DNA of 64,000 nucleotides from Squalus acanthias. Lineage: Eukaryota. Within the stretch, counting starts at the first letter, position 1; each line of letters opens with the position of its first letter. The notes under the pieces are model-generated. The model did no database searches. It was not told the origin of the DNA and saw nothing but the letters and a program-made list of their open reading frames with translations. The stretch is from contig CM059445.1 of the NCBI GenBank assembly GCA_030390025.1, forward strand, positions 30,008,001-30,072,000, written 5' to 3'. This document shows, one piece after another, positions 17,137-60,307 of the stretch. A program made the translations under genes and the position numbers.

Positions 17137-17331
17137 TTATATAGAACAGCTGACTTTGCCCATCTTCCTGCACTTCAGTATCTTCAGGAATGTCTCCATC
17201 TTGTGCGCATCTTTTCTGAAGCAGTTTAAGGTCGCGTAGTCTCTCAGAATAGAGTCCAGAACCTGGGGATTCACTTCGAACCCGATCAATGGCTTTTCCA
17301 GCTCTGCTCTGGGACAACTTTCATCCAGCAT
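17137..17331 (-). CDS. smtl: Somatolactin exon 5 (helix 4, stop codon)
   Basis: Acceptor cctttcttattaag|ATG CTG GAT. Encodes [19 protein letters not shown], the GH/PRL family C-terminal signature in its SL form. TAA at 17139-17137. Confidence 0.96.
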   Translation of the reverse strand: MLDESCPRAELEKPLIGFEVNPQVLDSILRDYATLNCFRKDAHKMETFLKILKCRKMGKVSCSI

Positions 17332-20300
17332 CTTAATAAGAAAGGAATATGGTTAAACACATGGTAAAAAATATCATTTCACCATTCAGACGCAACCAGT
17401 ATCTCACTGACCTGGCCCTGACACCAACCACAATTCGATAGATACAGAGAAGCTATTTCCCCTGCTGGGGAATCCAGAAGGAGGGGACACGATCTTAAAA
17501 TTAGAGCCAAGCGATTCAGTGGTGAAATCAGGAAACACTTTTTCAAACAAAAGGTAGTGGAAATGTGAAACTCTCTCCCCCTAAAGGCTGTGTGACAATT
17601 GGAGCTTTCCAGACTGAGATATGGATTTTTGTTGGGTAAAGGTATCAAGGGGTATGGAGCAAAGGCTGGTCAATGGAGTTGAGGTACAGATCAGCCTTGA
17701 CCTATTTAAATGGCAGAGTAAGTTCGAGGGGCTGAATGGGCTCCTCCTGTTCCTGTGTTTCTATAGAACCAATAACGAGGTGACGCAGCAAAAGATAACC
17801 ATTGCCCAGGATCTCTCCAACAACATTGTGGGCGAAGCATTGTGCGATGTGATACTGAGCACACAAACCAGGAAGGTCTTTGGTTCCACTCGTAGTTTGC
17901 ACTGTGTTAGCTGTTCTCAGGCGAGGCAGTGGGAGGGAAAACCATCAATAGCCTCTGAACCCCTGGGAGAGGAAGAGACATAGCTGGCCACAGTTCCTGC
18001 TCCCGGTCACTGCCCCGGTGACTATGAGCCCGGCTCAGTAATTTGGAGGTGGGGATGGGGGGTGGTGCTCAGTAATCTAGGGGAAGGCTCAGTAATGGTG
18101 GCTCAATAATCGAGAGGGGGAGATAGAGACTGGGGAATAGAGGCTCGGGGAGCAAGGCTGACTGGGGATGGAGGAATCAGGGGTTGGGAGGGCGGGGGAG
18201 AGGAGTGGACTGGAGAATGGGGAAGAGAAGGGGCCTGGGGCTGGGGGATTGAGCCTCAAGCGGAGGGGGAAATGGGCTGGGTGGGTGTGGCGACCAGCAT
18301 TTCCCGCAGAGCTGGGAGCAGCAGCAAGGTGGTGAGTGGGAGCGACGCAGAGGGAGGAGCAGCCAGTAAAGGGGCGAGTGAAACCTGGGGACCTCACTCT
18401 GGGTAAACAGTGAAAGATTGTTTCCACTGGTGAGCGACTGGGGAACAAGGGGACGCAGACTGAGGATTCTCATCAGAAGAATCAAGGGGAAGGGTGAAAG
18501 AAGGTTCTTGACCAGAGGGCTATTAGACCATGGAATCCTTCACCACATGTGGCTATTGAGGTAAAGACTAGAACATCATTTAAAAGGAAATGGGATCGTA
18601 TTTGAAAAGAAGGAATATAAAAGGATCTGGAGGGAATGGGGTTACGGGAGAGAGTGCCAGCACCGGGGGTTGAATGGCCTCCTCCTGTGCTGTAATTCCT
18701 ATAATTCTATGAAAATTCTCCTTTAATGAGTCTGAGCTTTGGGAGTGGTTTAGAATTGTTGGTGCTGAGCTAAGTTTAGGACAACATGTCCTGTGAGAAG
18801 TGCCCCAAACACCGAGCCCGCTGCCCTTTGTGCGATCTCTCGGTTTGGTTCAGGTCGGTCTGTACCGCCCGGGTTTGACGTGTGAAGTCCAAGTACAGAT
18901 CGACTCTGACTGAGGCTCCCAGTTCAGAAGTGTCACCTTCACACGGAACCGGAGTCCAAACCAGAGTCCAAGGGGATCGGGAGAGAGATCGGGCCTGTTA
19001 AAGTCACATCGACCGGGGAGCCTGACCTCACCTTGTGCAGTTCAGGGGGATTCTGGCTATAGTTTGAAGGGGAATATCAGCGGGTTATAGAAAGAAAGAC
19101 TTGCATTTATGCAGCACCTTTCACAACCTCAGGACGTCCCAAAGCACTTTATAGCCAATTAAATACTTTTGAAGTGTAGTCACTGCTGTAATGTAGAAAC
19201 ATGGCAGCCAATTTGCGCACAGCAAGCTCCCACAAACAGCAATGTGATAATGACCAGATAATGTGTTTTAGTGATGTTGGTTGAGGGATAAATATTGGCC
19301 CCAGGACACCGGGGATATCTCCCCTGCTCTTCTTCAAGATAGCGCATGGGATATTTTACATGCACCTGAGAGGGCAGACGAGGCCTTGGCTTAACATCTC
19401 ATCCAAAAGACGGCCCCTCTGACAGTGCAGCACTCCCTCAGCACTGCACTAGTGTCAACCTAGATTTTGTTCTCAACGCTCTGGAGTGGGACTTGAACCC
19501 ACAACCTTCTGACTCAGAGGCGAGGATGCAGCGACTGAGCCACAACTCAGTTTTACTACTAGTAGTACCAGTAACTAGTAGGATTATTACTAGTTACAGG
19601 TAGGATATCGGGGCATTAAATCAATTACTCCCAGTTACATATCAGTGAGTTATTGCATTACTGTTGGTTATGAGGGGAGTCTGCTATTAGTATTACTATT
19701 AGTTATCAGCGCAATTTCAGTGAGTTACCATTAGTTACTGGTGGAATCAAAGTCCCTCCCACCTCTGGTTTGCCCTCTTCCCCTGCTCACAGGAGGCCTC
19801 CTGGTTCTCGGAACTTCTCACACAACAGCTGCTGACACGAACCACGAACAAATATTCTCAACAACGGGGGACCCAACCGTTATAAAGTAAATGCAATAAC
19901 ATTTGTAGAAGTCATGTGATCAGATGTAACGTGATCAGATGTCACGTGATCATGCATCACATGGTCAGATGTCATTTGGTCAGAACATCACATGATCAAA
20001 CCTCCAGGAATGCCTCCAACCAATGTTGCCAACCCTAGTCTCAGCGGTCCAATCTTCAGTGATGCTTCACCGGACGAGATGCCTCTTACTCTGCGCAGTG
20101 CGGCCACTTTATGGAAATGAGGCCTGAGGCCTAATACTGGGAGCACCTCGGGCTTCACCATTCAGGTACAGGGATCGTACCCGAAAATGGGCGTGCCCAA
20201 ATTTCTAGGCCATTGAGCCCTAGAGAGATTGGTAGAACGTACAATGGTTTAAACTCTGGCCTTTCACCTCCAGGATCAAATCAAGCTCAGATTGATTGGA

Positions 20301-23300
20301 ATGAAAGCCTTCTGTGTTACCTATAATGACCTGGGAGTGCTGGACACTCGTACTGGCTGTCTGAAATGGAAAGTGTTCCATTATCCAGCACTAACATCCC
20401 TCACCTGGATGAGCAAAGAATTGACAAGAGAAAGACCAGAACTATACAGGCCAAACTTGAAAACTAGCAAAAGCTGGCCAGCAACTTCAAAGAAGCTGAT
20501 GCTGGCCCTCATTCAAAAACACCAACAGCTCAAAAAGAGCCCGAATACAAGGGCCATAACATAGAAAAGGTGGGACACACAGATCTCGTAATCTAATCTG
20601 CAGGTATAGCCAACATTCCATTACTTGTATTACAGCAAATAAAGAAGATATAATGGCCGAGAAATTCGGGTGGTTTGCGCCACCCGTTAGCACGGCCGGC
20701 TCTTCCGCCAGCTGGTGGAGGGACCCGCGGAATCCTCCATTTTCGAAGGCCCGGTAGCACTGCCGTTATGAAGTATCACCCTGCAAACACGCTGACTTAA
20801 TGTCACCACTGCTGCTGGATGCTTACAAGGCCTCGGATGGTGAAGGAAGGCCTCTGAGAAGACAGAAAATGCTGCAAATACTCAGCAGGTCAGGCAACAT
20901 CTGTGGCGAGAAAAACAGCATTCACATCTCAGGTCAAGATGCTGCCTGACCTGATGAATATTTTCAGCATTTTCTGCTGTCATTTCAGATTTACAGCATC
21001 CACTCGCAGAGGGAAAAAGAAGAAGTCGAAGAGGAGGAAACAGATGAGGAGAAAGCAGAAGGAAGGATGCAACCCAGACAGCCCCTTTCTGGCCAGGATA
21101 TCCGGGATGGAATTATCTGCCTGCGGTCCCAGTGACTACAACCCCAATTCCCCTTTTTACATTAGTCCCACACCTTACCTTCCCTCTGTTATTGACCATC
21201 ACAATGTCCTCTTGGCCACAATGCTGAAATAAAAGCCACCACAAAGCAAACTTCCCAATCCAACTTTACACATCTATCCATCCAATATGACATCAAGAAA
21301 TCAACTCATCACCCTTATGCATTCCCTTAGTGACTGTGTTGCGTGTGCCTTTGCCTAGCCTACTGATGTCACACAGTGCTACCCCAGTGGCTGCAGCATG
21401 GCTGATGGAAGGCTGCCGACTTTCAGTGGGGGACACTGCAAATGGCCTTGCAGGTCGACCTTGAGGAGCTGGTAGCTGGAAGTGTCAAATCAAGTGATGG
21501 TGTTTCAAGTTCTGATGTAAGGTCATTGACCTGAAACATTAACTCTGTTTCTCTCTCCACAAATGCTGCCTGGCTTGCTGAGTATTTCCAGCATTTTCTG
21601 TTTTTATTTGTGCTTTATGGCATCCACAGTATTTTGCTTTTTGATTTGTGATGGTCTTCTTGTTTTTTCCTCCTCCTCCTCCTCCTCCTGCTCCTCCTCC
21701 TCCTTCTCCTGCGCGGAAGACGACATAGAAAGTCATATATGCAAATTTGCCAATGACACAAAGATAGGTGGCATTGTGGGCAGTGTAGGTGAAAGCATAA
21801 AATGACAAAGGGATATCAATAGATTAAGTGAATGGGCAAAACTGTGGCAAATGGATTTCAATGTAAGCAAATGTGAGGTCATCCACTTTGAATCTAAAAA
21901 GGATAGAACAGAGTGCTTTCTAAATGGTGAAAAGCTAAAAACATCTTTAGCCCCCAGCGCAAATTTTTCTTGGGTATCACTGCGGCTGTTTTCAGCGGCC
22001 GTTAGCCCGAGTTGCCGGCATCACTGCTGGCGGCCACGAATTTCTAGGCCAAACATTTGCATTTCTATAGCGCCTTTCACAACCTCAAGACGTCTCAAAG
22101 CGCTTTACAGTCAATGAAGTACTTTTTGCAGTGCAGTTACTGATATAATGTAGCTACATGACTAAAATACGCAGAAGTATGTTCACCAGTAGGGGCGCTT
22201 TTAGATATTGCTGAAGAGGATTCACAGCTATCTGCTTCTGGAGGCTCGAGCCCCGTGTTTGAGCTGGCGCTGGAATCGGGGACTGAAGTTGGTGACAGTC
22301 GAGCCGGGTGGTATTATCTCCCAGGCCTCCTCCCTCACTGATGCCCGCCCGAAGCCAGCGGGGTTGACTTAGAGGCTGCCAGGCGGGAGCAGGAAATCGT
22401 GCAGCTGCAATCAGCTGTCCGGGACTATTGGGAATGGCCCCTGGCGAGGTAATTCAGGGCGGGAGGTGGGGGGCGGTCTGGGCCGATCACGGCCGTATAA
22501 GGAGAGGGGAGAGCCGGGATCAGGGGAGGCCCAATGTTTCCTTGTTGACTGATAGCTCTCTCACCTCTGAGTCAGAAGTTTGTGTGTTCAAGCCCCACTC
22601 TGGAGACTTGAGCACATAATCTAGGCTGACACTTCACGGCCGACATGAGGGAGCGCTGCATTGTCGGAGGTGCCGTCTTTCAGATGAGACATTAAACTGA
22701 GGCCTCGTCTGCTCTATCAGGTAGATGTAAAAGATCCCATGACACTATTCAAAGAAGAGCAGGGAAATTCCCCCCAGTGTCCTTGCCAATATTTATCCCT
22801 CAACCAACACCTAGAATCATAGAATCATAGAATGGTTACAGCACAGAAGGAGGCCATTTGGCCCGTCGAGCCCATGCTGGCTCTCTGCAAGAGCACTTCA
22901 GCTAGTCCCACTCCCCCGCCCTTTCCCCGTAGCCCTGCAATTTTTTTTCCTTCAGATACTTATCCAATTCCCTTTTGAAAGCCACGATTGAATCTGCCTC
23001 CACCACCCTTTCAGGCAGTACATTCCAGATCTTAACCACTTGCTGCGTAAAAAAGTTATTTCTTACGTCGCCTTTGGTTCTTTTGCCAATCACCTTAAAT
23101 CTGTGTCCTCTGGTTCTCGACCCTTCCGCCAATGGGAACAGTTTCCCTCTATCAACTCTGTCCAGACCCCTCATGATTTTGAACACCTCTATCAAATCTC
23201 CTCTCAATCTTCTCTGCTCCAAGGAGAACAACCCCAGCTTCTCCATTCTATCCACGTAACTGAAGTCCCTCATTCCCGGAATCATTCTCGTAAATCTTTT

Positions 23301-26300
23301 CTGCACCCTCTCTAAGGCCTTCACATCCTTCCTAAAATGCGGTGCCCAGAATTGGACACAGTACTCCAGTTGGGGCCAAACCAGTGTTTTATACAGGTTC
23401 ATCATAATTTCCACACTTTTGTACTCTATGCCTCTATTTATGAAGGAAGGAGCAAATCGATAGCTCCGAAAGCTTGTGATTTCAAATAAAACTGTTGGAC
23501 TATAACCTGGTGTTGTGCGACCTCTCTATTTATGAAGCCCAGGATCCCGTAAGACTTTTTAACTGCTTTCTCAACCTGCCCTGCCACCTTCAACAATTTG
23601 TGCACACATACCCTCAGGTCTCTCTGTTCGTGCAGGATTGTACCATTTAGTTTATATTTCCTCTCCTCATTCTTTCTACCAAAATGTATCACTTCACACT
23701 TTTCTGCGTTAAATTTCATCTGCTACGTGTCCGCCCATTTCACCAGCCTGTCTATGTCTTCCTGAAGTCTATCACTCTCCTCCTCACTGTTCACTATATT
23801 TCCAAGTTTGGTGTCATCGGCAAATTTTGCCTAGGCCCGTGGTGCCTAAAAAACTGGCGCCGCACAGCCCAAATTTAGCCCCCATTATCTGGTCATTATC
23901 ACATTGCTGAGCATGTTTGTTTGCATGTGGGGGCATGTGCATGTGTGAATTTGTTTGTGTGTGGGTGCGTTTGTGCGTGTGTGCATGTGTGTGTGTGTGT
24001 AACTATGCGACTCGCACATAACTTGATTTTATGTAAATGTGTGCTGGTGACTTATCTATAGGCAGTTAGTTTGTCTGTGCAATCAGACCGAGCACATTGT
24101 CCAATCATTCAGACAAGAGATATTTCTTACTTTGGTCACTGCTGAAACAGGTCCCAGATGCCCCGTCGCCCTCGCCACGCCGTTATTAGCTCGCACCTCC
24201 AGCAAAAATTGCAGGGCAAAAGTCTTTCGAGCTGAAAGGTGAGGGAAAATGTCTAACTAATGGGGCTCATCACGAGATGACCTGCTCCTGCAAATTCTGG
24301 GCCAAATATAACCTCTTTGGCACTGTGGACCACATAGAGTAGAATTATACCTGAAATAAATACAGAAAATGTTGGAAATACTCAGCAGGTCAGGCAGCAT
24401 CTGTGGAGAGAGAAACAGAGTTAACGCTTCAGGTCGATGACCTTTCATCAGAACTGGAAAAAGTTAGAGATGGAACAGGTTTTAACCAGGTGCAGAGACA
24501 GGGACAGGGGGGAGGGGAGGAAAGCACAAAAGGGACGATCTGTGATAGGGTAGAAGGCAGGAGTTGTTAAATGCTGCAAATGGGGATGGCAGAATCATCA
24601 ACAGCTGCTGCCTGAAAAAATAGGGGCAGAGGTTATGGTCCGAAATTGTTGAACTCGATGTTGAGTCCAGAAGGCTGTAAAGCGCCTAATCGAAAGATCT
24701 TACGTTGAGCTTCGTTGGAACAGTGTAAGATGCCGAGTACATCTATGACTTTTTCCAGTTTTGACGAGGGGTCATCGACCTGAAACGTTAACTCTGTTTC
24801 TCTCTTCACGGATGCTGCCTGACCTGCTGAGTATCGCCAGCATTTTCTGTTTTTATTTCAGATTCCAGCACCCGCAGTATTTTGCTGTTGTCGTAGAATT
24901 ATACCTGAGTTGTGCGGCCACTTCTTCATGGTTTTCTGTCTCTCTACCTTGACTCCTGCCCCATCAAGCATGGGATCCAAGTGAACACAATATGAAATAT
25001 TGAACTGCAGTGGCAACGTGATCAGTGCCACCAACACAAGGACTCAAGAACTTGCGAGTTAGCATGGGATGGGTTTGGTCCCTTCAGCTGATTTTCAAGA
25101 GGAAACATGGGAACAGTGGACAAAGCACTGATTGTCCATGTAAAAAACGTACGTTTGCAGAACTCCAGGCTGGTTAAACACTACACATTACTCTCTCTAC
25201 ACAGATGCGGCCGGACCTGCTGTGATTTCCAGCAAAAAAAGTTTTTTGTTTTCCATACAGACACCAGCATCTGCCACATTGTCTTTGATGTAATGTTTTC
25301 CTGACTGACCTGTTTGGACACCATCCACACCTTTGATTGCCGTGATTATCTCTCCGCCGAGGTGTGATAAAGGGCAGTTGGAAAGATTAACTGTAATCAT
25401 CTGGCTGTGTTTTCTGACTATATATGCTGTGCCTATATGTATCTCTTCACTTCACCTGACGAAGGAGCAGCGCTCCGAAAGCTTGTGATTTCAAATAAAG
25501 CTGTTGGACTATAACCTGGTGTTGTGCGACTTCTCACATTTGTCCACCCCAGTCCAACACCGGCATCTCCACATCATGACTACACATTACAACAGTGAAC
25601 TCACTTCAAAAGTACTTCATTGGCTGTGGAGTATTTTGGGACGTCCTGAGGTTGCGAAAGGCACAATATAAATGTCTTTATAATGTCTTTTTTCTTTTAC
25701 ACTGTACAGAATCGACTGTAGGGGGTACTGCTGACTATTCCAGGAATGTAGGATAGCACATGACACGAATGAAACCAATCAATATCTTGCTGTCCAGGAC
25801 TCAGGTTTGATTGAGTATGATGATCGGGATTGTTTGCTACGTGTGTGTTGCCGTGGTGATGGGTGCTGAGGGCGGGTACATAAATACTTGTTGTTTTCTG
25901 CCTCCAAACTATCAATGCCTGAATGTGTCCAAGGTACATTGAACAAACCACACCCCCCATTAAAAGGGTCTCAGTTACAACACTCTATTACACACCACTT
26001 TCATTCTAAAGTTCTCCTTCCCTCTCTCTCTTTCTGCTTCCCTCTCTTTCTCCCCCTCCCTCTCCCTCTCTCTCTGATCAGAGTACTGGACTTTGGTTCT
26101 TGAGATTTCATGTTTAATAAAGTGCTTTATAATGTAGTACATAGCTTGTGATAATACGCAAGGAGTTGTAATAAAGGTGGATCATCTATTTCTTTGATTT
26201 GGAAAGTGTTGGTTTAATATGGATTAAGAACAGAATGTGGCTGCTGATTTTTAATTCTAAAATTAGCCCCACTGTATGTAGAATGTAATGTTAACCCAGA

Positions 26301-44300: not shown

Positions 44301-47300
44301 GCATCTGTTCTGACGATGCCACCTTCCATACTAGTTCTTCCGATATGTTTTCCTTTTTCCTCAACCGAGGATTCCCCTCGACCATGTCCGTTCCATTTCC
44401 CACACTTCTGCTCTCACCCCTTCCCCTCCCTCCTGGAAATGATAGGGTTCCCCTTGTCCTCACCTTTCACCCCACCAGCCTCCACATTCAACGGATCATC
44501 CTTCGCCATTTCCGCCACCTCCAACGTGATCCCACCACCAAACACATCTTCCCCTCCCCTCTCCTTTCAGCATTCTGAAGGGACCGCTCCCTCCGCGACA
44601 CCCTGGCCCACTCCTCAATCACCCCCAACACCCACTCCCCTTCCCATGGCACCTTCCTGAGCAAGCACAGGAGATGCAACACCCGCCCTTTTACCTCCTC
44701 CCTTCCCACTGTCCAGGGCCCCAAACACTCCTTCCAGGTGAAACAGCGATTTACTTGTACTTCTTGCAATTTAGTATACTGTATTCGCTGCTCACGATGC
44801 GGTCTCCTCTCCACTGGGGAGACCAAACGCAGATTGGGTGACCGCTTTGTGGAACACCTCCATTCAGTCCATAAGCGTGACCCCGAACTTCTGGTCGCCT
44901 GTCACTTTAATTCTCCGCTCCACTCCCACTCTGACCTCTCCGTCCTCGGCCTCTTACACTGTTCCAATGAAGCTCAACGTAAGCTCGAGGGACAGCACCT
45001 CATCTTTCAATTAGGCACTTTACAGCCTTCTGGACTCAATATTGAGTTCAACAATTTAAGTCCATAACCTCTGCTGCTATTTTTTTAGATAGCAGCTGTT
45101 GATGATTATGCCATTCCCATTTACACCTTTTCTGGACCCATCTTTTGTTTCTTTACTTGTCCCATTATCATCTCCTTTTGCTTTGTACTATCATACCTTT
45201 TGTCAATTAATCACTCCTGCCTTCCACACTTTCACAGACCTTCCCTTTTGTTCTTTCCTCCCCTCCCCCCTCTCCCTGCCTCTGCACTTGCTTAAAACCT
45301 GTTACATCTCTAACTTTTTCCAGTTCTGACGAAAGGTCATCGACCTGAAACGTTAACTCTGTTTCTCTCTCCACAGATGCTGCCTGACCTGCTGAGTATT
45401 TCCAGCATTGTCTGTTTTCACTATAAAAGAAAGGGAAGCTGGGTGGTCATGAGATGGGTTGAAAGGCGGTCAAGGGAGCAGGTGGTGGGCTACATGGAAG
45501 AAAGTAGTTTAATGAGGGCTGCAAGTGGAGATGAGAAGCTGCAGAATATAGGGGGGGGGGGGGGGTGGATGGATTAGGAGGGGGGTAAGAAAGATTGGAC
45601 TGGTGGAAAAGAAAGGTGCAAAGAGGGCAGAGATGACCAAGGAAATTGACTTGATTTTGCAGACAATAACCTTCATATGCTCCTCACATCTCGAATTAGA
45701 GCTGAGAATAGATTTAGCTATAGATAGGCAGAGGCAATAATCGTTGAGGTCTTCAACAGAGATCCACCCAGATGACCATGATCTGCACTATACTCTGGCC
45801 TATGATGTGGCTGGTGTGACCAGGGTGAGCACTGCGGGTGAGAGACCATCAAAGGAAATAAGAGTGAGTATATGAGAATAGATTAGCGGGTAACATAAAA
45901 GCGAACAAAAAGTCTTTTATAAGCATATAGGTAGTAAAAGGGTAGTCAAAGGAAGGATGGGGCTGATTAGGGACCAAAAAGGAGATCTGCTTGTGGAGGC
46001 AGAGAGCATGGCTGAGCTACTAACTAAGTAACTTGCATCTGTTTTCACTAAAGAAGAGGATGCTGCCAATGTCATAGTAAAGGAGGAAGTAGTAGAGATA
46101 CTGGATGGGGTAAAAATAGATAGATAGGAGGTACTTAAAAGGTTGGCAGTGCTCAAATGATAAAAGTCACCTGGCCCGGATGGGATGCATCCTAGGTTTC
46201 TGAGGAAAGTAAGCGTGGAAATTGCAGAGGCCACAATCTTCCAATCCTCCTTGGATATGGGAGCAATGCCAGAGGACTGGAGGTTTGCAACTGCTACACC
46301 CCTGTTCAAAAAAGGGGAGAGGGATAAACCCGGCAACTATAGGCCAGTCAGCCTAACTATTAGAGACAATAATCCGAGTCAAAATTAATTGTCACTTGGA
46401 AAAAATATGGATTAATAAATGACAGCCAGCATGGATTTGTTAAAGGTAAATCGTGTTTGACTAACTTGATTGAGTTCTTTGATGAAGGAACGGAGAGGGT
46501 TGATGAGGGTAGTGCGGTTGCTGTTGTGTATATGGACTTTCAAAAGGTGTTTGATAAAGTATCACATAATAAACTTGTTAGCAAAATTGAAGCCCATGGG
46601 ATTAAAGGAGCAGTGGCTGTCTGGATACGAAATTAGCTAAGGACAGAAAGCAGAGAGTAGTGGTGAACAGTTGTTTTTCAGACTGGAGGAAACTATACAG
46701 TGGTGTCCCTCAGAGGTCGGTATTAGGACCACTGTTCTTTTTGATATATGTTAATGACCTGGACTTGGGTATAAAGGACATCATTTCAAAGTTTGATGGT
46801 GATACTAAACTCAGAAATATAGTAAACAGTGGGGAGGAAAGTAATAAACTTCAGGAGTACATAGCAGACTGGTGAAATGGGCAGACACATGGCAGATGAA
46901 ATTTAACGGAGGGAAGTGTGAATTGATTCATTTTGGTAGGAAGAATGGGGAGAGGCAATATAAACTAAATGGTACAATGTTAAAGGGGGTGCAGGAACAG
47001 AGAGACCTGGGGGTGTATATACACCAATCTTTGAAGGTGGCAGGACAAGTTGAGAAGGCTGTTAAAAAGATGTACGAGATCCTTGGCTTTACAAATAGAG
47101 GCACAGAGTACAAAAACAAGGAAGTTATGCTAAACCTTTATAAATCACTGGTTAGACCTCAGCTGAGGCTTTGTGGTCAATTTTAAGCACCACACTTTAG
47201 GAAGACTGTCAAGGCCTTAGCGAGTTTGAAGAGTATATTTACTAGAATGCTACCAGGGATGCGGGACTTCAGTTGTGTGGAGAGACTGGAGAAGCTGGGA

Positions 47301-50300
47301 TTGTGCTCCTTAGAGGAGAGAAGGTTAAGAGGAGATTTGATAGAGTTGTTCAAAATTATGAAGGGTTTTGATAGAGTAGATAAGGAGAAACTGTTTGCAG
47401 GAGCAGAAGAGTCAATAACCAGAGGACACAGATTTAAGGTAATTGGCAAAAGAATCAGGGGGGAGATGAGGAGACATTTTTTTGAGCAGCAAGTTGTTGT
47501 GATCTGGAATGCACTGCCTGAAAGGGCGGTGGAAGCAGATCCAATAGTAACTTTCAAATGGGAATTGCATAAAAACTGGAAGGTGAAAATTTGCAGGGCT
47601 GTGGGGAAAGAGCAGGGAAATGGAACTAATTGGAAAAGCTCTTTCAAAGAGCCGGCACAGGCATGGTGGGCTGAATGGCCTCCTTCTGTGCTGTATCGTT
47701 CTATGATTCTTTTATGATCTTGTGGGGACATTAGCAACAAATATGCTGGTACGGTAGTTGTCAGCAGATTGATGGCAGCACCAATGTCAGTATAGGTGGA
47801 AGTCCAGAGGATTTGGAAAGGGCGCTGATGAAGGATTTAGGGAATTTATTTTCAGGTGTAATAGGAAAGGATGAAGGGGTTAGAGGTGAACAGGAAGATG
47901 TGTCTGGTGATAGGGATGAAGAAGTGAAGTTTTGAGCGTGCATGGATATGAGTGGGAGAGTGTATGTTCAGGGAAGAAAAGAGGGTGTAGAAATGGGAGG
48001 AGACAGGAAAGGCTAAATTCAGGGGCAGAATAAAGATGCTCAGAATGATGAGAGAGAACAGAGGACAAAGGAGGAGATTTCAGAAAGGAAGGCACCAGAG
48101 TGGCTTTGGGAGATGAGATCCTGAAGGAAATGTGAGAAAGAACGGAGAGAATGAGATGTTTAAATGAAGAAAAAATGCTACAGGACCATAGGAATAATCC
48201 ATTATGAGACCTTGAGATGAATGTCACATGAGGCGCGAGTTGGCTAGGATGGATTGGGGAGCGTTACTTAAAGGGTTGACGGTAGATAGGCAATGGCAAA
48301 CATTTAAAGATCACATGGATGAACTACAGAATTTGTTCATCCCTGTTTGGCATAAAAATAAAACAAAAAAGGTGACTCAACCGTGGCTAACAAGGGAAAT
48401 TAGGGATAGCATAAGATCCAAGGAGAGGACATATAAATTGGCCAGAAAAAGCAGCAAACCTGAGGATTGGGAGCAGTTTAGGATTCAGCAAAGGAGGACA
48501 AAGGGATTAATTAAGAGGGGGAAAACAGAATATGAGAGTAAGCTTGCAGGGAACATAAAAACTGACTGTAAAAGCTTCTATAGATATGTGAAGATAGGTC
48601 CCTTGCAGTCAGAATCAGGGGAATTTATAATGGTGAACAAAGAAATGGCAGACCAATTAAATACATAACATAGCAAAATACTGCGGATGCTGGAAATCCG
48701 AAATAACAACAGAAAACACTGGAAAAACTCAGCAGGCCAGACAACATCCGTGGAGAGAGAAAGAGAGTTAACGTTTCAGGTCGAAACCCTTCGTCGGAAC
48801 TGAAAGAGCAGGAAATAAACAGATAAAAATGCAAGGGGGAGGCTGGGGGGAGGAATAAAAGAACAAAAGGGGCGGTCTATAGTAAGTAGAGACATTGAGA
48901 GATGCTCAAGGCAAGACGAGATGGTAATGGGACAGGTTGAGAAACAAAAGGTAAGGTGTGAAATTCTGGCAGAATGAGAGACAGCTGCCGTGGGGGGAGA
49001 GAGAGAAAAAAAAAGGAAAAAGGCACGGACCAAAAGAGTGGATAAAATGTATACATATGTGGTAGGGGCCGGGGTTATGATCTGAAATTGTTGAACTCGA
49101 TATTGAGTCCGGAAGGCTGTAAAGTGCCTAAACGAAAGATGAGGTGCTGTTCCTCGAGCTTACGCTGCGCTTCCGTGGAACAATGCAAGAGGCCGAGGAC
49201 GGTGAGGTCTGAGTGAGCGTGGAGGGGTGAATTAAAATGACAAGCGACCGGAAGCTCGGGGTCACCCTTACGGACTGAACGGAGGTGTTCCGCAAAGCGG
49301 TCACCCAATCTGCGTTTGGTCTCCCCAATGTAGAGGAGACCACATCGTGAGCAGCGAATACAGTATACTAGATTGCAAGAAGTACAAGTAAATCGCTGTT
49401 TCACCTGGAAGGGGTGTTTGGGGCCCTGGAGAGTGGGAAGGGGGGATGTATAAGGGCAGGTGTTGCATCTCCTGCACTTGCACGGGAAGGTGCCGGGTGA
49501 AGGGGAAGGGGTGCTGGGGGTGATAGAGGAGTGACTAGGGTGTCTCGGGGGGAGCAGTCCCTACGGAATCCTGAAAGGGGAGGTGAGGGGAAGATACGTT
49601 TGGTGGTGGGATCACGTTGGAGGTGGCGGAAATGACGGAGGATGATCCGTTGAATGTGGAGGCTGGTGGGGTGAAAGGTGAGGACAAGGGGAACTCTATC
49701 GTGGTTCCGGGAGGGAGGGGCCGGGGTGAGGGCAGAAGTGCGGGAGATGGAACGACACGGTCGAGGGCCGTGTCGACCACGGTAGAGGGGAATCCTCGGT
49801 TGAGGAAAAAGGAAGACATGTCGGAAGCACTGGTATGGAAGGTGGCATCGTCGGAGCAGATGCAGCGGAGACGGAGAAACTGGGAGAAGGGAATAGAGTC
49901 CTTACAGGAGGCGGGGTGGGAGGAAGTGTAGTCCAGGTAGCTGTGGGAGTCAGTGGGCTTGTAGTGAATGTTGGTCAATAACCTATCCCCAGAGATGGAG
50001 ACGGAGAAGTCGAGGAAGGGGAGGGAAGAGTCGGAGATGGACCATGTGAAGGTGAGGGATGGGTGGAAATTGGAGGCAAAGTGAATGAAATTGTCTAGTT
50101 CGGGGCGAGAGCAGGAAACGGCACCGATACAGTCGTCAATGTACCGGAAAAAGAGGTGAGGGAGGGGACCCGAGTAGGACTGGAACAAAGAGTGTTCCAC
50201 ATATCCCACGAAAAGGCAGGCATAGCTAGGACCCATGCGGGTACCCATAGCAACACCTTTGATTTGGAGGAAATGAGTGGAGTCAAAGGAGAAGTCGTTC

Positions 50301-53300
50301 AATGTGAGAACAAGTTCAGCCAGGTGGAGGAGGGTGGCGGTGGATGGGGACTGGTTGGGCCTCTGTTCAAGGAAGAAGCGGAGCGCCCTCAGGCCATACT
50401 GGTGGGGGATGGAGGTGTAGAGGGATTGTACGTCCATGGTGAAAAGGAGGCGGTTGGGGCCAGGAAACTGGAAACTGTTAAAGTGGCGGAGGGCGTCAGA
50501 GGAATCGCGGATGTAGGTGGGAAGGGACTGGACAAGGGGAGAAAAAATAGAATCGAGATAGGAAGAGAGAAGTTCCGTGGGACAAGAGCAGGCTGAAACG
50601 ATGGATCTACCAGGGCAGTCCTGTTTGTGGATCTTGGGAAGGAGGTAGAAGCGGGCTGTGCGGGGTTGGGGAACTATGAGGTTGGCGGCCGTGAGGGGAA
50701 GATCTCCAGAGGAGATGAGGTCAGTGACAGTCTTGGACACGGTGGCTTGATGTTCGGTAGTGGGGTCATGGTCCAGGTGGAGGTAGGAGGAGGTGTCGGA
50801 GAGTTGGCGTTAAATACATACTTTGGTTCTGTCTTCACAAAGGAGGACACAAATAAACTCCCAGAGATGTTGGGGAACATAGGGTCTAATGAGAGGGAGG
50901 AATTGAATGAAATCAGTATTTGTAGGGAAATGGTGTTAGGGAAATGGATGGGATTGAAGGCCGATAAATCCCCAGGGCCTGATAATCTACATCCTAGGGT
51001 ACTTAAGGACGTGGCCCTAGAAATAGTAGATGCATTGCTGGTCATCTTTCAAAATTCTATAGACTCTGGAACAGTTCCCACGGATTGGAGGGTAGCTAAT
51101 GTAACCACACTATTTAAAAAAGGTGGCAGAGAAAAAAGAAAAAAGCCTGACATCGGTAGTGGGCAAAATGCTAGAGTCCATTATAAAAGATGTAATAGCA
51201 GAGCACTTGGAAAACAGTGACAGGATCGGACAAAGTCAACATGGATTTACAAAAAGTAAATCATGCCTGACTAGTCTACTGGAATTTTTTGAGGATGTAA
51301 CAGGTAGAATAGATAAGGGAGAACCAGTGGATGTGGTGTATTTGGACTTTCAGAAGGCTTTCGATAAGGTCCCGCATAAGAGATTAGCGTGCAAAGTTAA
51401 AGCACATGGGATTGGGGGTAAGGTACTGATTTGGATAGAGAACTGGTTGGCAGACAGAAAGCAAAGAGTTGGAATAAACGGGTCTTTTTCCGAGTGGCAG
51501 GCAGTGACTAGTGGTGTACCGCAGGGATTGGTGCTAGGACCCCAGTTATTCACAATATATATTAATGATCTAGACGAGGGAACTAGATGTAATATCTCTA
51601 AGTTTGCAGACGACACAAAGCTGGGTGGGCGTGTTTGCTGTGAGGAGGATGCAGAGAAACTCCAGTATGATTTAGACAGGTTGGGTGATTGGGCAGATGC
51701 ATGGCAGATGCAGTATAATGTGGATATATGTGAGGTTATCCACTTTGGTGGCAAAAACAGGAAGACAGATTATTATCTGAACGGCAATAGATTGGGAAAA
51801 GGGGAAGTGCAACGAGATCTGGGAGTCCTTGTGCACCAGTCGCTGAAGGTAAGCATGCAGGTGCAGCAGGCGGTTAAGAAGGCAAATGGTATGTTGGCCT
51901 TCATAGTGAGAGGATTCGAGTACAGGAGCAAGGCTGTCTTGCTGCAGTTGTACAAGGCCTGCGTGAGACCACACCTTGAGTATTGTGTGCAGTTTTGGTC
52001 GCCTTATCTGAGGAAGGATGTTCTTGCCATGAAGGGAGTGCAGCGAAGATTTACCAGACTGATACCTGGGATGGCAGGAATGACGTATGAAGAGAGATTG
52101 GGTCGATTAGGCTTATATTCGCTAGAGTTTAGAAGAATGAGAGGGGATCTCATTGAAACTTATAAAATTCTAACAGGACTAGACAGACTAGATGCAGGAA
52201 GGATGTTCCCGATGGCGGGGGAGTCCAGAACCAGAGGTCACAGTCTAAGGATAAGGGGTAAGCCATTTAGGACTGAGATGAGGAGGAATTTCTTCACCCA
52301 TAGAGTGGTGAACCTGTGGAATTCTCTACCACAGAAGGCAGTTGAGGCCAAGTCATAAAATATATTCAAGAAGGAGATAGATATATTTCTTAAGGTTAAA
52401 GGGATCAAGGGATATGGGGAGAAAGCAGGGACAGGGTACTGAATTTGGATGATCAGCCATGATCTCATTAAATGGCGGAGCAGGCTCGAGGTGCTGAATG
52501 GCCTACTCCTGCTCCTATCTTCTTCTATGATGGGGTTGGATGGGGGATGTGATGAGATGTGTAGTCAGATAGGGTGTTCTTAGTGATCAGAGAAGATTTG
52601 TTGTGGATCAGCCTAGTTTCGATCAGACCCAGTATGCCAATGCACTCATCTTGAATAAGGCTGAGAATGGGGGGAACTTAGTTTGTGAAAAGTCGACATT
52701 TAGCAGGGTTATACGGAGGAGATGATAGCTGGAGACTCAGTGGGATGCCTAGAGAAGGTGGACTCAGTGTGGTTTCAACACACGGTGTGCTGCCAGGCCA
52801 GGCTCTTGCTAGTTTCATGATAAATTAGATCATATGTCTGAATAATGCAATTCTGTTGTAGTTTCTCAAAATCAGTGCAGTCAGCTATTTCAGAGTCAGA
52901 GCAGAACGGCATGTTCACTGTGAAGCCAACAAACGTGCCAATTCTTTTCCTCTGTTGCCAGCTTTGTCTTCTTTTCTACTCCCTCTTTTTTTCATCTGCT
53001 TCACCATCTTCTCATCTGCTATATCTTGTCTTCATTTTCTTATAACCCCCTGCTCAGACCTCAAGTTAATATTGCAGTCGGGACCGGATGACGTCATCGA
53101 AGCCCGAACTGCATAATTAAAGAAGGATCCCATCAGCTTTGGGTGGGTGTCCTGGCCGCTTGCAATTTAAAAATTTCAGCAGGCCAGATCAGGGGTTAAG
53201 TCAGTGGATAAGTCTCCTGCTCCATTTTAACTGCATTCCCACCCAGTTTCCACCAAGCAGTGTGTTAAAATTAGGCCCTGGGAATCACACCTTGTGATGC

Positions 53301-55840
53301 TGAGAACAGCATCCGAAGATATTGTAGAAAAATTCTTCTCTGCTGCACTGTGCGTCTCGATCCCAAAGCAATGGGAGAAATTGGCCGCCAACAACTCACT
53401 AATTTTCTTGCTGCATTCGACCATCGTGCTACATCATCATATTCAACTGCAACAACTTCCATTTATATAGCACCTTTAATATAGTAAAATATCCCAAGGC
53501 GCTTCACAGGAGCGTTATCAGATAAAATTTGACACTGAGCCACATAAGGAGATATTAAGACAGGTGACCGAAAGCTTGGTCAAAAAGGTAGGCTTTAAGA
53601 ATCGGCTTAAAGGAGGACAGAGAGGTGGAGAGCAATATTCCCTTTAAGCTGCGAAGTCTGGAGCTGCACAGCCTCTTAAAGGAGCAGCGCAGCCCAGAAA
53701 TAAATTAGAGGGAAAATTGGTAGAGAGGTGGAGAAGTTTTAGGAAGGAATTCCAGAGCTTAGGGCTGAGGCAGCTAAAGGTACGTCCACCAATTGTGGAG
53801 CGATGAAAATCAGGGATGCGCAAGAGGCCAGAATTGGAGGAGGTTACAGAGATAGGGAGGGGTGAGGCCATGGAGGGATTTGAAAACAAGGATGAGAATT
53901 TTAAAATTGGGGCGTTACTGGAGTGGGAGCCAGTGTAGGTCAGCGAGCACAGGGGTGATGGGTGAACGGGACTTGGCGTGAGTTAGGATACTGGCAGCAG
54001 GGTTTTGGATGAGCTCAAGTTTATGGAGATTGCAAGAGGGGAGGTTGACCAGGAGAACATTGGAATAGCTGAGCCTAGAGGTAACAAAGGCATGGATGAG
54101 GGTTTCAACAGCAGATGAGCTGAGGCAGCGGCAACACATAGCAACATGCAATAAAGGGCTTAATAGCACAGGAATGTACATTTTTGTTTGTGAAGTTTCA
54201 GTCGATTCATAAGTTTCCAGGCAAATAGGCCTTTTAGCTAATGTGTAATTATATATTTACAATGGATACACAATTAACATGTTCAAATTACAGGAAACCT
54301 CAACTCATTAACTAGTTACATCAAGGAACCAATTTGATCTGCAATTTAAAACCCCGCTGTACACTTAAATTAAAACCCCGTTGAAGGTGGCAGGGCAGGT
54401 TGAGAAAGCAATTAAAAAGGCTTACAGGATCCTGGGCTTCATAAATAGAGATGAAGAGTACAAAAGTGTGGAAATTATGATGAACCTCTATAAAACACTG
54501 GTTCGGCCCCAACTGGAGTACTGTGTCCAATTCTGGGCACCACACTTTAGGAAGGATGTGAAGGCCTTAGAGAGGGTGCAGAAAAGATTTACGAGAATGA
54601 TTCCAGGAATGAGGGACTTCAGTTACGTGGATAGACTGGAGAAGCTGGGGTTGTTCTCCTTGGAGCAGAGAAGATTGAGAGGAGATTTGATAGAGGTGTT
54701 CAAAATCATGAGGGGTCTGGACAGAGTAGATAGTTCCCATTGGCAGAAGGGTCGAGAACCAGAGGACACAGATTTAAGGTGATTGGCAAAAGAACCAAAG
54801 GAGATGTAAGAAAAAACTTTTTTACGCAGCGAGTGGTTAAGATCTGGAATGCACTGCCTGAAAGGGTGGTGGAGGAAGATTCAATCATGGCTTTCAAAAG
54901 GAATTATGTATCTGAAGGAAAGAAATTTGCAGGGCTACGGGGAAAGGGCGGGGGAGTGGGACTAGCTGAAGTGCTCTTGCAGAGAGCCGGCATGGGTTCG
55001 ACGGGCCGAATGGCCTCCTTCCACGCTGTAACCATTCTATGATTCTATAATTTAACCCTTTAAAGCCTGATACAGTTCAACAGGTGCTCAGGGACAGGGG
55101 TGGACTGGCTCCCCCCGAAAGGGCACGGGATTCTCACGGAAGAAGGGTTTGCCGATAATACTGCACTTTAGAACCATTTATGGGAGCATTCAGGAAATCT
55201 CCTCATTTCCCATATGGCCAGTCTGCCCCTGCCCAGGGACCATGTTCAACCGGCCCTTCTTCATGTGTAAGCTGGGCAGTGAGCAGCAGCAGGCTTGTCC
55301 ACTGTGAGGAACATCACAGCTAAGGTCAGGCTGTCCTCACCTGATGTGCACACCACAACCGCACACTTTCCAACAGGAATCACTAATTAGAGATCAGGAG
55401 CAGGAACCCTGGCCAATTTTTCCTTTCCCTATCACAAAGCTAACTGTGGCAGTCCAACTGCTATTATGGATGAGATCAGCTAACAGCACAGACCAAGAAT
55501 CAAACCCAAGATCTTCCGGTTTATATGGATTCGTACGACACTGGGTGGCACCTTTCTCCACTAAATCATTGTCAGAGCTTACCCAATCTTAGAATTACAT
55601 GTAATTGTAATTGTATTTGGATGGAACGCCAAACACGCTGGTTACTCACAAAGATAGTGTATGACTCTTCAGACATCTTGTAGATATGTTCAGAGTACTG
55701 GATGGCTCGGTTCAGGATCTTCTCCAATGAGATGACTGTACGAGATCTGTAAGGGCTCTGTGTATCTTTACAATCCACTAAGGGAGATGGTGCACACATA
55801 AAATGGTAGAGAATGACAGCAGAGAATCCGATCTGCAGGA
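17137..55840 (-). CDS. smtl: Somatolactin (GH/PRL/SL family) gene, coding exons 2-5; join complement(55650..55840, 41650..41757, 28651..28830, 17137..17331); exon 1 not found
   Basis: The exons splice to one open frame of 224 codons plus stop: (V)[63 protein letters not shown]|[36 protein letters not shown]|[60 protein letters not shown]|[64 protein letters not shown]. It matches remembered SL-specific motifs (SKSEIxxISDxWLLH, VQSWxEP, K|MLDE, [26 protein letters not shown]). All splice sites are GT-AG. Confidence 0.95.
17430..17765 (+). mobile_element. CR1 3' fragment in SL intron 4
   Basis: [13 protein letters not shown]-like sequence followed by a CR1 3' UTR. Confidence 0.75.
19090..19546 (-). 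mobile_element. Full-length tRNA-derived SINE, SacSINE1/DeuSINE-like
   Basis: Reverse complement has an A-box-like GGCTCAGT and B-box GGTTCAAGTCC, a central Deu-like domain (CTCTCAGGTG..GTAAAA.ATCCCATG...GAAGAAGAGCAGGGG) and a tail ATAAATGCAAGTCTTTCTTTC. Family name is from memory. Confidence 0.8.
19905..20035. repeat. 15-bp tandem repeat (GTGATCAGATGTCAC-like, about 6 copies) next to a hAT-like terminus GTTGCCAACCCTA
   Basis: Read directly from the sequence. The CACATG/CACGTG-type repeats resemble DNA-transposon subterminal repeats. Confidence 0.6.
20655..22050. mobile_element. Internally deleted Harbinger-like element with nested PLE and CR1 fragments
   Basis: Ends GGCCGAGAAATT and AATTTCTAGGCC. 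21300-21400 resembles the reverse complement of the Myb 3' end at 33465-33558. PLE family B pieces lie at 20860-21003 and 21505-21640, and a CR1 piece at 21720-21940. Confidence 0.55.
22545..22812 (+). mobile_element. SacSINE1-like SINE 5' part, interrupted by CR1; resumes at about 23884-23910
   Basis: CCTCTGAGTCAGAAG...TTCAAGCCCCACTCTGGAG...GAAGAGCAGGG...CCCTCAACCAACA matches the copy at 19090-19546. Confidence 0.75.
22814..23830 (-). mobile_element. CR1 LINE 3' about 1 kb, carrying a 78-bp PLE insertion at 23446-23523
   Basis: ORF 22902-23414 is the CR1 RT C-terminus. The insert is flanked by a 14-bp TSD CTCTATTTATGAAG at 23432-23445 and 23524-23537. Confidence 0.9.
23915..24000. repeat. 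Imperfect (GT)n microsatellite
   Basis: GTGTGCATGTGTGTGT... run. Confidence 0.8.
24355..24892. mobile_element. PLE family B short insertion with inverted pLTRs and two degenerate hammerheads (24419-24455 minus, 24757-24793 plus)
   Basis: 16-bp TSD GTAGAATTATACCTGA at 24339-24354 and 24893-24908. It contains the GIY-YIG C-terminal end ([17 protein letters not shown]) on the minus strand. Confidence 0.85.
25421..25576 (+). mobile_element. About 160-bp PLE-derived mini-element (family A) with an intact hammerhead at 25452-25488
   Basis: Nearly identical to the reverse complement of 12616-12772, with the same ends. Flanked by TGACTA at 25415-25420 and 25577-25582, inside a SINE tail. Confidence 0.85.
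26969..27705 (+). mobile_element. CR1 LINE 3' fragment (an older CR1 relic lies at about 26340-26800)
   Basis: ORF 26932-27360 reads [13 protein letters not shown]...[15 protein letters not shown]. The tail is CCTATGTTCC. Confidence 0.88.
27938..28390 (+). mobile_element. tRNA-like SINE sharing its 3' tail with the LINE at 13878-16065 (other copies about 36278-36493 and 58157-58435)
   Basis: B-box-like GAGTTCAAATCC. Tail CACCACCACCTTCTC...AATAAATGCCGGCCTCGCCAG..ATGCCCACATCCCAAGAATGAATT(A)n. Confidence 0.7.
28651..28830 (-). CDS. smtl: Somatolactin exon 4 (helices 2-3)
   Basis: Acceptor catcttacag|GAT CAG TGG. Donor CAA AAG|gtaaga. Length 180 bp. Encodes [18 protein letters not shown]...[11 protein letters not shown]. 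Confidence 0.94.
29846..30250 (-). mobile_element. PLE family B pLTR fragment with an intact hammerhead at 29913-29948
   Basis: Reverse complement reads agtt-CTGACGA-agggt ttc gacct-GAAA-cgtt-aact. Similar to 48690-49070. Confidence 0.82.
30695..30830 (+). promoter_or_regulatory. Putative promoter of the Harbinger Myb gene
   Basis: CCAAT/ATTGG boxes at about 30703, 30740 and 30765, CACGTG at 30803-30808 and TATATAAA at 30819-30826, about 120 bp before ATG 30943. Confidence 0.5.
30943..33558 (+). pseudogene. Harbinger Myb/SANT-like DNA-binding gene (exon 1 30943-31185, exon 2 31413-31575, exon 3 from about 31733, disrupted by a MITE)
   Basis: Reads [18 protein letters not shown]...MWREV...[15 protein letters not shown]. 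Exons 1-2 have GT-AG sites. The exon 3 acceptor appears mutated (ttctg) and the exon carries an insertion. Confidence 0.8.
32290..33030. mobile_element. Harbinger-type MITE inserted in the Myb gene
   Basis: TIR GGCCCAAAAATT and AATTTTTGGGCC. TSD AAT at 32287-32289 and 33031-33033. AT-rich core with TGCGCATGCGC motifs. Confidence 0.88.
33773..34879 (-). pseudogene. HARBI1-like DDE transposase pseudogene
   Basis: Motifs [34 protein letters not shown] and [15 protein letters not shown]. In-frame TGA at 34397-34399. Catalytic Asp residues are mutated ([13 protein letters not shown]). Confidence 0.9.
35375..36114 (+). mobile_element. Probable solo LTR; its 5' start may lie left of the Harbinger, at about 30541
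   Basis: TATA-like CATAAAAGGGG at about 35738, duplicated CAGAGGTTACCCCAGG, AATAAA at 36075 and a terminal CA. TGGGACCAGA occurs on both sides of the Harbinger. No convincing TSD. Confidence 0.4.
36560..37575 (-). mobile_element. Deleted Harbinger-like element with a decayed transposase N-terminus
   Basis: Ends GGGGTTATTTT and AAAATTGCCCC. The relic [13 protein letters not shown] resembles the [12 protein letters not shown] motif. Confidence 0.5.
37850..39402 (-). pseudogene. Second Harbinger transposase pseudogene and its upstream terminus
   Basis: ORFs 38281-38910 and 37804-38220 read [32 protein letters not shown] and [16 protein letters not shown]. There is an internal deletion and a stop. 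Terminus AATTTCTTCCCC. Confidence 0.88.
39410..39765 (+). mobile_element. CR1 3' fragment
   Basis: [24 protein letters not shown] followed by a GATTCTATGATTCTA tail. Confidence 0.78.
39775..41170 (+). mobile_element. LF-SINE-like SINE interrupted by a Harbinger-type MITE (39858-40723)
   Basis: Head GGCCTTTTTCCTCT..GGGTTCAATTCCAGCC. Body has CCTATGTGAAATGAGTT (40756-40772) and CCACATCACAAAAC (40808-40821), as remembered from the LF-SINE consensus. MITE TIRs are GGGCTGGATTTTA and TAAAATCCAGCCC. Confidence 0.65.
41650..41757 (-). CDS. smtl: Somatolactin exon 3
   Basis: Acceptor tttgtttcag|GAG GAG. Donor ATT TCG|gtaagg. Length 108 bp. Encodes [20 protein letters not shown]. Confidence 0.92.
42015..43430 (-). 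mobile_element. Old L2-clade LINE, degenerate; probable continuation at 45425-45860 and 52530-52740
   Basis: [15 protein letters not shown] and QLHWLPV motifs of L2 RT, with an L2-like tail at about 42020. Confidence 0.7.
42452..42580 (-). mobile_element. PLE family B 3' stub, truncated at the hammerhead
   Basis: 12-bp TSD AGAACAGGAGCA at 42440-42451 and 42581-42592. Hammerhead at 42550-42585 with stem III mutated (ACAT). Confidence 0.85.
43436..45424 (+). mobile_element. Penelope-like element (family B): RT plus GIY-YIG, frameshifted, intact hammerhead at 45322-45358
   Basis: [34 protein letters not shown] and [11 protein letters not shown] motifs. The YIDD motif is deleted. TSD AAAAGAAA at 43428-43435 and 45425-45432. 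Confidence 0.93.
45890..47710 (+). mobile_element. CR1 LINE, about 1.8 kb of ORF2, degenerate
   Basis: [40 protein letters not shown] and RGDLIE motifs, followed by a CR1 tail. Confidence 0.9.
48228..52530 (+). mobile_element. Relatively young CR1 LINE (ORF2 3' part), split by a PLE
   Basis: The 411-aa ORF 51123-52358 carries [24 protein letters not shown] and KFADDTK. The CR1 reading frame continues across the PLE (EMADQLNT|YFGSVF). Confidence 0.94.
48668..50809 (-). mobile_element. Penelope-like element (family B) inserted into CR1
   Basis: The 401-aa RT ORF has FFRYIDD. GIY-YIG ORF 49075-49404 reads [16 protein letters not shown]. 11-bp TSD TTAAATACATA at 48657-48667 and 50810-50820. Hammerhead at 48766-48801 with a CCGACGA core variant. 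Confidence 0.95.
53445..54140 (-). mobile_element. L2 3' fragment with an 87-bp hAT-type MITE at 53633-53719
   Basis: [14 protein letters not shown] and HWLP are L2 motifs. MITE TIRs are CAATATTCCCT and AGGGAAAATTG, with TSD GTGGAGAG/GTAGAGAG. Confidence 0.82.
54380..55047 (+). mobile_element. CR1 3' fragment, same subfamily as 22814-23830 and 61373-61927
   Basis: Near-identical [28 protein letters not shown] segment and tail. Confidence 0.9.
55230..55560 (-). mobile_element. Unclassified old tRNA-like SINE (related copies about 62510-62840 and 17900-18030)
   Basis: Shares GATCAGGAGCAGGAA.CC and GAGATCAG.TAAC..AGCACA.. with 62660-62780. Reverse complement has a B-box-like GGGTTTGATTC. Confidence 0.5.
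55650..55840 (-). CDS. smtl: Somatolactin exon 2 (signal peptide and helix 1)
   Basis: Acceptor attgttccag|TC CTG CAG (phase 1, as for GH-family intron 1). Donor ATC TTT|gtgagt. Length 191 bp. Encodes a hydrophobic segment followed by PLVDCK...[24 protein letters not shown]. Confidence 0.92.
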
Positions 55841-56044
55841 CTGGAACAATAAACAACAGCTCAATCAACTTTTCCAACAGTAAATATTGGTTACCTCTCA
55901 AACTGAGGCATGTTACAACATGAGAAAGAACAGGAAAAGGTCAATTAAGGCCTACTAACCTTTGCTTTTGTTCAGGGATTCTCCCCACCTACTCACCTGC
56001 TCATCACATCCCTCAATCCCTTCCCTCTTCAGAAACACATCCAA

Positions 56045-56605: not shown

Positions 56606-56894
56606 GAATTTGTTGAATCCATTCATACTGGTCCAGTGGAAGTGCCCAGGCAATTTATTCCATGACTCGATTACCTTCTGGGTGAAAACATTCTACCCGA
56701 CTTCTTTTCTTAACTTCTGACTCCTGCTCTTTGGCCCTTTCCCCATAAGAAAAACAGAATCGAATCCGAGAAAATACAGATGGCAGAACAAGACTCTCTG
56801 TATGTCATTCATTTTTGGTAATTTTATTTTTGTTGTTGTCCTTAAGCATGTGATGACATCCCTGGACAATGAGATATTTTTCCATACTCCTTCT

Positions 56895-60175: not shown

Positions 60176-60307
60176 ATTGTAAGAAAGGTTCTTCATTGCT
60201 TTCTTTGTGAATTTTGAGTTCACCAAGTTGAAGTATTTTAGTGCTGGGGGACGGAACAGTTTCCATTTCTGCACCCAATGTTCACATGCAGCAGTTAGAT
60301 ACTCGAC

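Follow-up and report, generated by a model that had tools for sequence, protein, structure and literature searches.

Analysis of the window, i.e. the whole stretch of 64,000 nucleotides under study, reveals on its minus strand a gene that is, judging by its sequence, the somatolactin (SL) gene of a shark. Its coding exons 2 to 5 and the adjoining introns are arranged as follows (positions are those of the window; positions on the contig that holds it are prefixed C22).

55841-64000 (right end of the window), minus strand: likely intron 1, phase 1
55840-55650, minus strand: exon 2, 191 nt, entered in phase 1, with AG/GT ends (tblastn E 9e-34); it encodes the remainder of the signal peptide, the first mature cysteine (codon 55772) and helix 1, with Arg in place of the second SL cysteine (55742) and Tyr in place of the third (55661)
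41758-55649, minus strand: intron 2, 13,892 nt, phase 0
41757-41650, minus strand: exon 3, 108 nt, one among 49 open AG..GT candidates (tblastn E 9e-13); it encodes the long loop, including the cysteine of the large disulfide (41706)
28831-41649, minus strand: intron 3, 12,819 nt, phase 0
28830-28651, minus strand: exon 4, 180 nt, found by a motif scan (tblastn E 5e-32); it encodes helices 2 and 3 with the invariant helix-3 glycine (28674) and a new cysteine (28731), and lacks the N-glycosylation sequon (28719)
17332-28650, minus strand: intron 4, 11,319 nt, phase 0
17331-17137, minus strand: coding part of exon 5, 195 nt including the TAA stop (tblastn E 3e-32); it encodes helix 4, the conserved cysteines at 17223, 17172 and 17148, and a new cysteine at 17316

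AG occurs at each of the four acceptors and GT(A/G)AG at each of the three donors, and the intron phases are 1-0-0-0 when the absent first intron is counted. Splicing of exons 2 to 5 yields 223 whole codons followed by one terminal stop. The earlier note had described four exons over 38.7 kb that form an uninterrupted frame of 224 amino acids with canonical sites and the intron phases of the GH family, and this description holds, the 224 amino acids being the 223 whole codons plus the split first codon. In the residue numbering used here, residue 1 is the first whole codon in exon 2. In a tblastn comparison, the sawshark SL protein matches exactly these four stretches in the same order, and random minus-strand stretches with the lengths of exons 2, 3, 4 and 5 are open in 11%, 25%, 13% and 11% of cases, respectively; the ordered matches and this low chance openness indicate that the exons did not arise by chance. 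None of the four has a repeat copy in the surrounding 464 kb, 58% of which is repeated. The Pfam family Hormone_1 (PF00103) matches exon 5 above the cut-off (E 1e-6) and exon 4 below the curated cut-off (E 6e-4), and gives no match with exons 2 and 3 taken singly. A hydrophobic stretch is present at the start of exon 2, the frame that extends upstream of this exon contains no ATG, and the closest AATAAA is 3.2 kb beyond the stop. Additionally, the introns contain minus-strand frames at 59133-59513, approximately 38700 and 34592-34699 that are similar to one another and that, we presume, resemble fragments of a Harbinger-type transposase. At approximately 60340-60700, a unit of roughly 57 bases is repeated in tandem.

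Several fish and salamander SL precursors carry five residues ahead of the point at which shark exon 2 starts, and a coding exon 1 of 16 nt is therefore predicted. The best candidate for this exon is C22:30072589-30072574 (16 coding nt), which lies 8.7 kb upstream, 574-589 bases past the right end of the window. It is the nearest one that also yields the conserved valine junction, is located in non-repeated sequence with a good start context and donor, and, when joined to exons 2 to 5, gives a 229-residue precursor with a hydrophobic leader; no canonical TATA box is found at this position. Two more 16-nt candidates with the valine junction occur among 41 loose ones in 120 kb. The candidates inside the window at 63187, 61096 and 57166 were rejected, as they variously lie in a repeat, have a weak donor or lack the conserved valine junction. 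The gene had been described as intact-looking, which is accurate for exons 2 to 5 but goes too far for the whole, since exon 1 is represented by no more than a candidate and the protein has lost two SL cysteines.

The database models of a sawshark and a sevengill shark contain the same four exons and carry no signal-peptide N-terminus. The N-terminus of the sawshark model was rejected as exon 1 because it matches repeats on both strands; residues 1-75 of this model correspond to such repeat copies and to read-through of the exon 2 acceptor region, and on this comparison the 5' end of the public model is wrong. The N-terminus of the sevengill model, which matches 62887-62807, was also rejected, being flanked by repeats and lacking a signal peptide. 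This intronic stretch (window 62807-62887) shows a 61% match to the first 28 residues of the sevengill model, is single-copy in 464 kb and has genome-wide repeats on its flanks. It is probably conserved intron sequence that was mis-called as an exon in that model.

The relatives retrieved with exon 4 alone are two proteins, both named "somatolactin beta", from the sawshark Pristiophorus japonicus and the sevengill Heptranchias perlo. Their identities are 93% and 83% over exon 4 and, gap-free, 88% and 77% over the 223 residues of the protein. Over 202 trimmed columns, the identity is 88% to sawshark SL, 79% to sevengill SL, 54% to gar SL, 53% to sturgeon SL, 47-50% to teleost SL-alpha, 43-46% to salamander SL and 40-43% to SL-beta, whereas it falls to 24-31% for GH, 23-26% for PRL and 21-24% for PRL2. 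A maximum-likelihood tree (IQ-TREE, JTT+G4; 34 sequences, 202 columns) was built with 33 database proteins, of which 30 are named by their sources and 3 are unnamed, and which include neither lamprey proteins nor the SLs of lungfish and coelacanth. The three shark proteins group together (SH-aLRT/bootstrap 99.1/99) within a clade of all SLs (99.7/100), the sharks are sister to all bony-vertebrate SLs (81.9/88), and GH, PRL and PRL2 are placed in separate clades. A tree in which the shark proteins are forced to group with GH is rejected (p-AU 0.003). The SL clade and this rejection bear out the earlier assignment of the gene to SL rather than to GH, PRL or PRL2.

When the shark proteins are forced to group with SL-beta, the tree is worse and is not formally rejected (p-AU 0.079); membership in the teleost 3R beta clade was nevertheless discarded, as the best tree sets the sharks outside all bony SLs. 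SL-alpha and SL-beta arose by duplication in teleosts, according to the available text of PMC6277588. Because of this date, and because the identity to SL-beta is the lowest among the SLs, the "beta" label of the shark models is best read, from these comparisons, as an annotation artefact. Teleost SL-alpha and SL-beta belong to one clade with the shark protein, at 40-50% identity and with the core cysteines kept, but the shark SL predates their duplication, and one GHR was found in the shark genome.

The core cysteines of the large and C-terminal loops (residues 81, 196, 213 and 221), present in 119-121 of 121 bony SLs, are kept in the shark protein, as is the first mature cysteine. At the position of the second SL cysteine, this protein and that of the sawshark have Arg, whereas the sevengill protein and 121 of 121 bony-vertebrate SLs have Cys; the presence of this cysteine in the sevengill indicates that the loss here is secondary. 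The N-terminal disulfide loop, formed by the first and second mature cysteines, is absent. As PRL and PRL2 also have this loop in the accessible part of PMC6277588, it is typical, not diagnostic, of SL. The third cysteine and the Asn-X-Thr glycosylation sequon are both absent in all three sharks, each being present in 117 of 121 bony SLs. SLs that lack one or the other are known: salmonid SL-alpha lacks the sequon and SL-beta the third cysteine, as given in the available text of PMC2553077. New cysteines are present at residues 133 and 165, one of them gained by a CpG-type Arg-to-Cys change; none of the 121 bony SLs has them, nor does the SL of the sawshark or the sevengill. The helix-3 glycine, which is invariant in a 44-sequence family alignment, is kept. 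In human GH, this glycine serves receptor binding at the second site.

The fold predicted for the sawshark orthologue, which is 88% identical and was modelled in place of the window's own splice, consists of four long helices and matches the structures of GH and PRL, with a mean pLDDT of 78 that includes the spurious N-terminus. Among solved structures, GH is the closest in sequence (E 2e-20), ahead of PRL (E 7e-15). GH, PRL and PRL2 resemble the shark SL in the Pfam Hormone_1 domain, the predicted four-helix fold, the intron phases and the two core disulfides, and differ from it in sequence and in clade as described above.

A search of the 3.7-Gb genome reveals one SL locus; the GH and PRL loci are separate from it, on other contigs. 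The last exon of the host GH shares 84-93% identity with the GH of sharks and rays, and the PRL exons share 67-76% with the PRL of bamboo and epaulette sharks, which confirms that the host is a shark, as had been supposed from its repeats. By SL alone, the host is nearer to the sawshark than to the sevengill, and from this affinity we take it to be a squalomorph shark. A genome-wide search with Pfam PF00103 found the GH and PRL exons and missed the SL locus, for which reason negative exon-level searches carry little weight. A search with a lizard PRL2-like query found no PRL2 locus in the genome and weakly matched a PRL exon; this search is insensitive, and its result is no sign of loss. The genome contains at least one GHR (one tail exon found) and at least one PRLR-type receptor (one exon found), and the other match of the search that gave the PRLR-type exon is thrombopoietin-receptor-like. 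The related orphan receptor CRFA4 is reported to be absent from cartilaginous fish in the available text of PMC6997183.

FLI1 (C22:29879900-29978500, plus strand) lies tail to tail with SL, its ETS exon approximately 47 kb past the SL stop; its pointed-domain and ETS exons are open, and FLI1 scores best for them among solved structures. An ETS1-type gene with split ETS exons, a name that rests on these exons and on position, is located 0.46 Mb past the SL stop, at 29.56 Mb, and two inward-rectifier channel genes are found 1.2 and 1.5 Mb past SL (28.83 and 28.54 Mb). The supplement of PMC9546618 places SL at 160.49 Mb, ETS1A at 160.93 Mb and FLI1a at 161.20 Mb of reedfish Chr9. The synteny check proposed in the earlier note was performed against this species and shows SL in the same ETS1/FLI1 block in a different order (ETS1-FLI1-SL in the shark versus SL-ETS1-FLI1 in the reedfish), a local rearrangement that one inversion would explain. 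In the same supplement, reedfish SL spans 18 kb, compared with at least 38.7 kb in the shark. Lamprey GH, in Table S6 of that supplement, lies 0.8 Mb from ETS1A and FLI1a, the block of the shark and reedfish SL. On the other side of the gene, no host gene was found in C22:30072001-30472000 among the 135 of 1,366 ranked non-repeat frames that were searched, which gave retrotransposon domains only. These 400 kb upstream of SL are 66% repeated and may be a gene desert. No KIRREL3-type exon was found near SL in an exon-level search, which is weak. An LTR-type retrotransposon with reverse transcriptase, RNase H and integrase in several frames is located at C22:30234954-30238546 and is unrepeated in 664 kb.

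The closest counterparts among known systems are the unduplicated SLs of gar, sturgeon and reedfish. Likeness is seen in the identity of 53-54% for gar and sturgeon, in the ETS1/FLI1 neighbourhood for reedfish, and in a precursor length of 229 aa, if the candidate exon 1 is right; the shark SL differs in lacking the second and third mature cysteines and the sequon. The salamander SL of Pleurodeles and Ambystoma (available text of PMC12506533) is similar in being a survivor in one branch of a group that was thought to lack SL. It differs in that newt transcripts are reported there, whereas the shark SL is known from the gene alone.

Across the three sharks, the SL frame has no stop or indel in 223 codons. 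The constraint on the protein was estimated over 203 mature columns, 80 of which are conserved at >=90% in 18 diverse bony-vertebrate SLs, assuming even mutability. None of the nine window-specific changes falls on a conserved column (3.5 expected, P 0.01), and only 11 of the 53 columns that vary among the sharks are conserved in bony SLs (20.9 expected, P 0.0008). The sawshark-specific changes show no such avoidance, with four of ten on conserved columns (3.9 expected). The GC content of third positions is 0.59, versus 0.47 for the whole SL coding sequence. The avoidance of conserved sites favours a working gene, and the SL gene is probably functional on these comparisons.

We consider it quite probable that the locus is the shark's single SL, the counterpart of the unduplicated SLs, likely working, secreted from the intermediate lobe of the pituitary and likely signalling through GHR. 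The gene would then have five exons, the first of them 8.7 kb upstream with 16 coding nt, and would encode a 229-residue precursor with a signal peptide, and the product would be a non-glycosylated four-helix hormone held by its two core disulfides. By analogy with teleosts, expression in cells of the pars intermedia is somewhat favoured. The chances are even that the hormone binds GHR at two sites and then signals by JAK/STAT; the kept helix-3 glycine fits an agonist. That it acts on pigment cells and on lipid metabolism, as is supposed of the teleost hormone, is rather less likely than not. The simplest reading would be that this pituitary hormone is secreted and that GHR serves both it and GH. 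In teleosts, SL is produced in the pars intermedia and is linked to both body colour and lipid metabolism, according to the available text of PMC2553077 and PMC12506533, and the former proposes a teleost-specific GHR duplicate as the SL receptor. In the accessible part of PMC10137387, medaka mutants do not provide evidence that either of the GHR paralogues serves as the receptor of SL-alpha. Newt SL transcripts are reported to be high in oogenesis and early embryos (PMC12506533, in part), so the site of expression in the shark may also differ.

A less likely explanation, to which we give a minor share of the probability, is that the gene is a silent or decaying SL orthologue, that sharks and rays are losing SL, and that the frame is open only through the slow change of shark genomes. 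Several observations agree with such decay: a cysteine that is otherwise invariant is lost and two are gained, one by a CpG-type change; no SL protein was found among the annotated proteins of rays or galeomorph sharks; the changes in the sawshark do not avoid conserved sites; and the N-termini of both database models are not signal peptides, which suggests that their 5' ends have no RNA support. However, the 223 codons are free of stops and indels in three sharks, seven of seven splice sites are canonical, and the window-specific changes spare the conserved columns. Additionally, the divergence of the shark SLs (77-88% identity) is within the range of GH (84-93%) and PRL (67-76%), a comparison in which the species pairs and exons differ.

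Rather more improbable is a working SL with a changed job, one that acts locally or in the gonad, or that binds PRLR or an unknown receptor, with rewired disulfides. The loss of the sequon and third cysteine that most bony SLs have, and the lineage-specific turnover of cysteines, would be in keeping with a new function, as would the newt SL in oocytes and embryos (PMC12506533, in part), the medaka genetics that do not support GHR-type receptors for SL-alpha (available text of PMC10137387) and the report in the accessible text of PMC6997183 that shark PRLR is found mainly in the pituitary. Against this, the salmonid SL-alpha without the sequon and SL-beta without the third cysteine are both hormones of the pars intermedia (PMC2553077, in part), and the nearest solved relative is GH, not PRL. 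A second GH, a PRL2, a true SL-beta or DNA from outside the cartilaginous fishes is exceedingly improbable: the "somatolactin beta" names, the shark and SL-beta grouping that is not formally rejected and the insensitive search that found no PRL2 locus are outweighed by the agreement of tree, identities and synteny on SL, by the closer relation of the gene to gar, sturgeon and SL-alpha than to SL-beta, by the teleost date of the alpha/beta split (PMC6277588, in part), and by the position of the locus mid-way along a 65.5-Mb contig in a genome with shark-type GH and PRL.

Among cartilaginous fishes, the protein database contains the GH of five ray genera and of Mustelus, together with the PRL of Hemiscyllium and Chiloscyllium, whereas the cartilaginous-fish SLs among the matches listed come from the sawshark and the sevengill only (two of two, two of six, and two of the best 120 of 172 matches in the separate searches). 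Both species are squalomorphs in the cartilaginous-fish tree that we assume here and use to count losses. No other protein among the 302 compared exceeds 56% identity to the shark SL, except for two fragments of fewer than 40 residues at the conserved C-terminus. This patchy distribution rests on annotated proteins, so that unannotated copies are possible. On the assumed tree, the restriction of SL to squalomorphs and its reported absence from the elephant shark would amount to up to three separate losses. Sharks likely kept SL, possibly in just one branch; that it was kept only in squalomorphs and lost separately in chimaeras, rays and galeomorphs, as a hormone without glycosylation whose disulfides are being rewired and which faces one GHR and one PRLR, falls somewhat short of an even chance.

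SL is listed for ray-finned fishes, lungfish and salamanders and is stated to be absent in the elephant shark in the available text of PMC9546618 and PMC12506533. The latter names teleosts, lungfish, sturgeons and salamanders as carriers in the part available, so that the list in the earlier note was sound as far as it went but missed the salamanders. The accessible part of PMC7873642 treats the SL cell type as teleost-specific. The expansion of GH, PRL and SL is older than the split between sharks and bony fish according to PMC6997183, and an origin of SL before this split was already concluded from phylogeny and synteny in PMC6997183 and PMC9546618, as far as their text is available. The suggestion that a shark SL would bear on this origin is therefore right in so far as the gene confirms it directly, but the origin had been inferred before and receives no new date. 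As for prior annotation, which the earlier note left aside, the orthologue is already machine-annotated in the sawshark and sevengill. No report of a shark SL was found in the accessible literature by title or start of abstract, and supplements may hold an earlier record; the gene has apparently not been discussed in that literature. The value of the finding is limited by these two automatic annotations and by the expectation of an ancient origin.

Nevertheless, the shark SL provides direct evidence, in place of inference, that the last common ancestor of jawed vertebrates had GH, PRL and SL together. The question of the SL receptor could also be approached more simply in this shark: duplicated GHRs confound the work on teleosts, whereas one GHR and one PRLR were found in the shark genome. 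Should the patchy distribution be confirmed, a pituitary hormone would have been lost several times independently, and sharks with and without SL could be compared. If SL was indeed kept only in squalomorphs, these sharks would be a natural test of the role and receptor of SL before the hormone and receptor duplications of teleosts.
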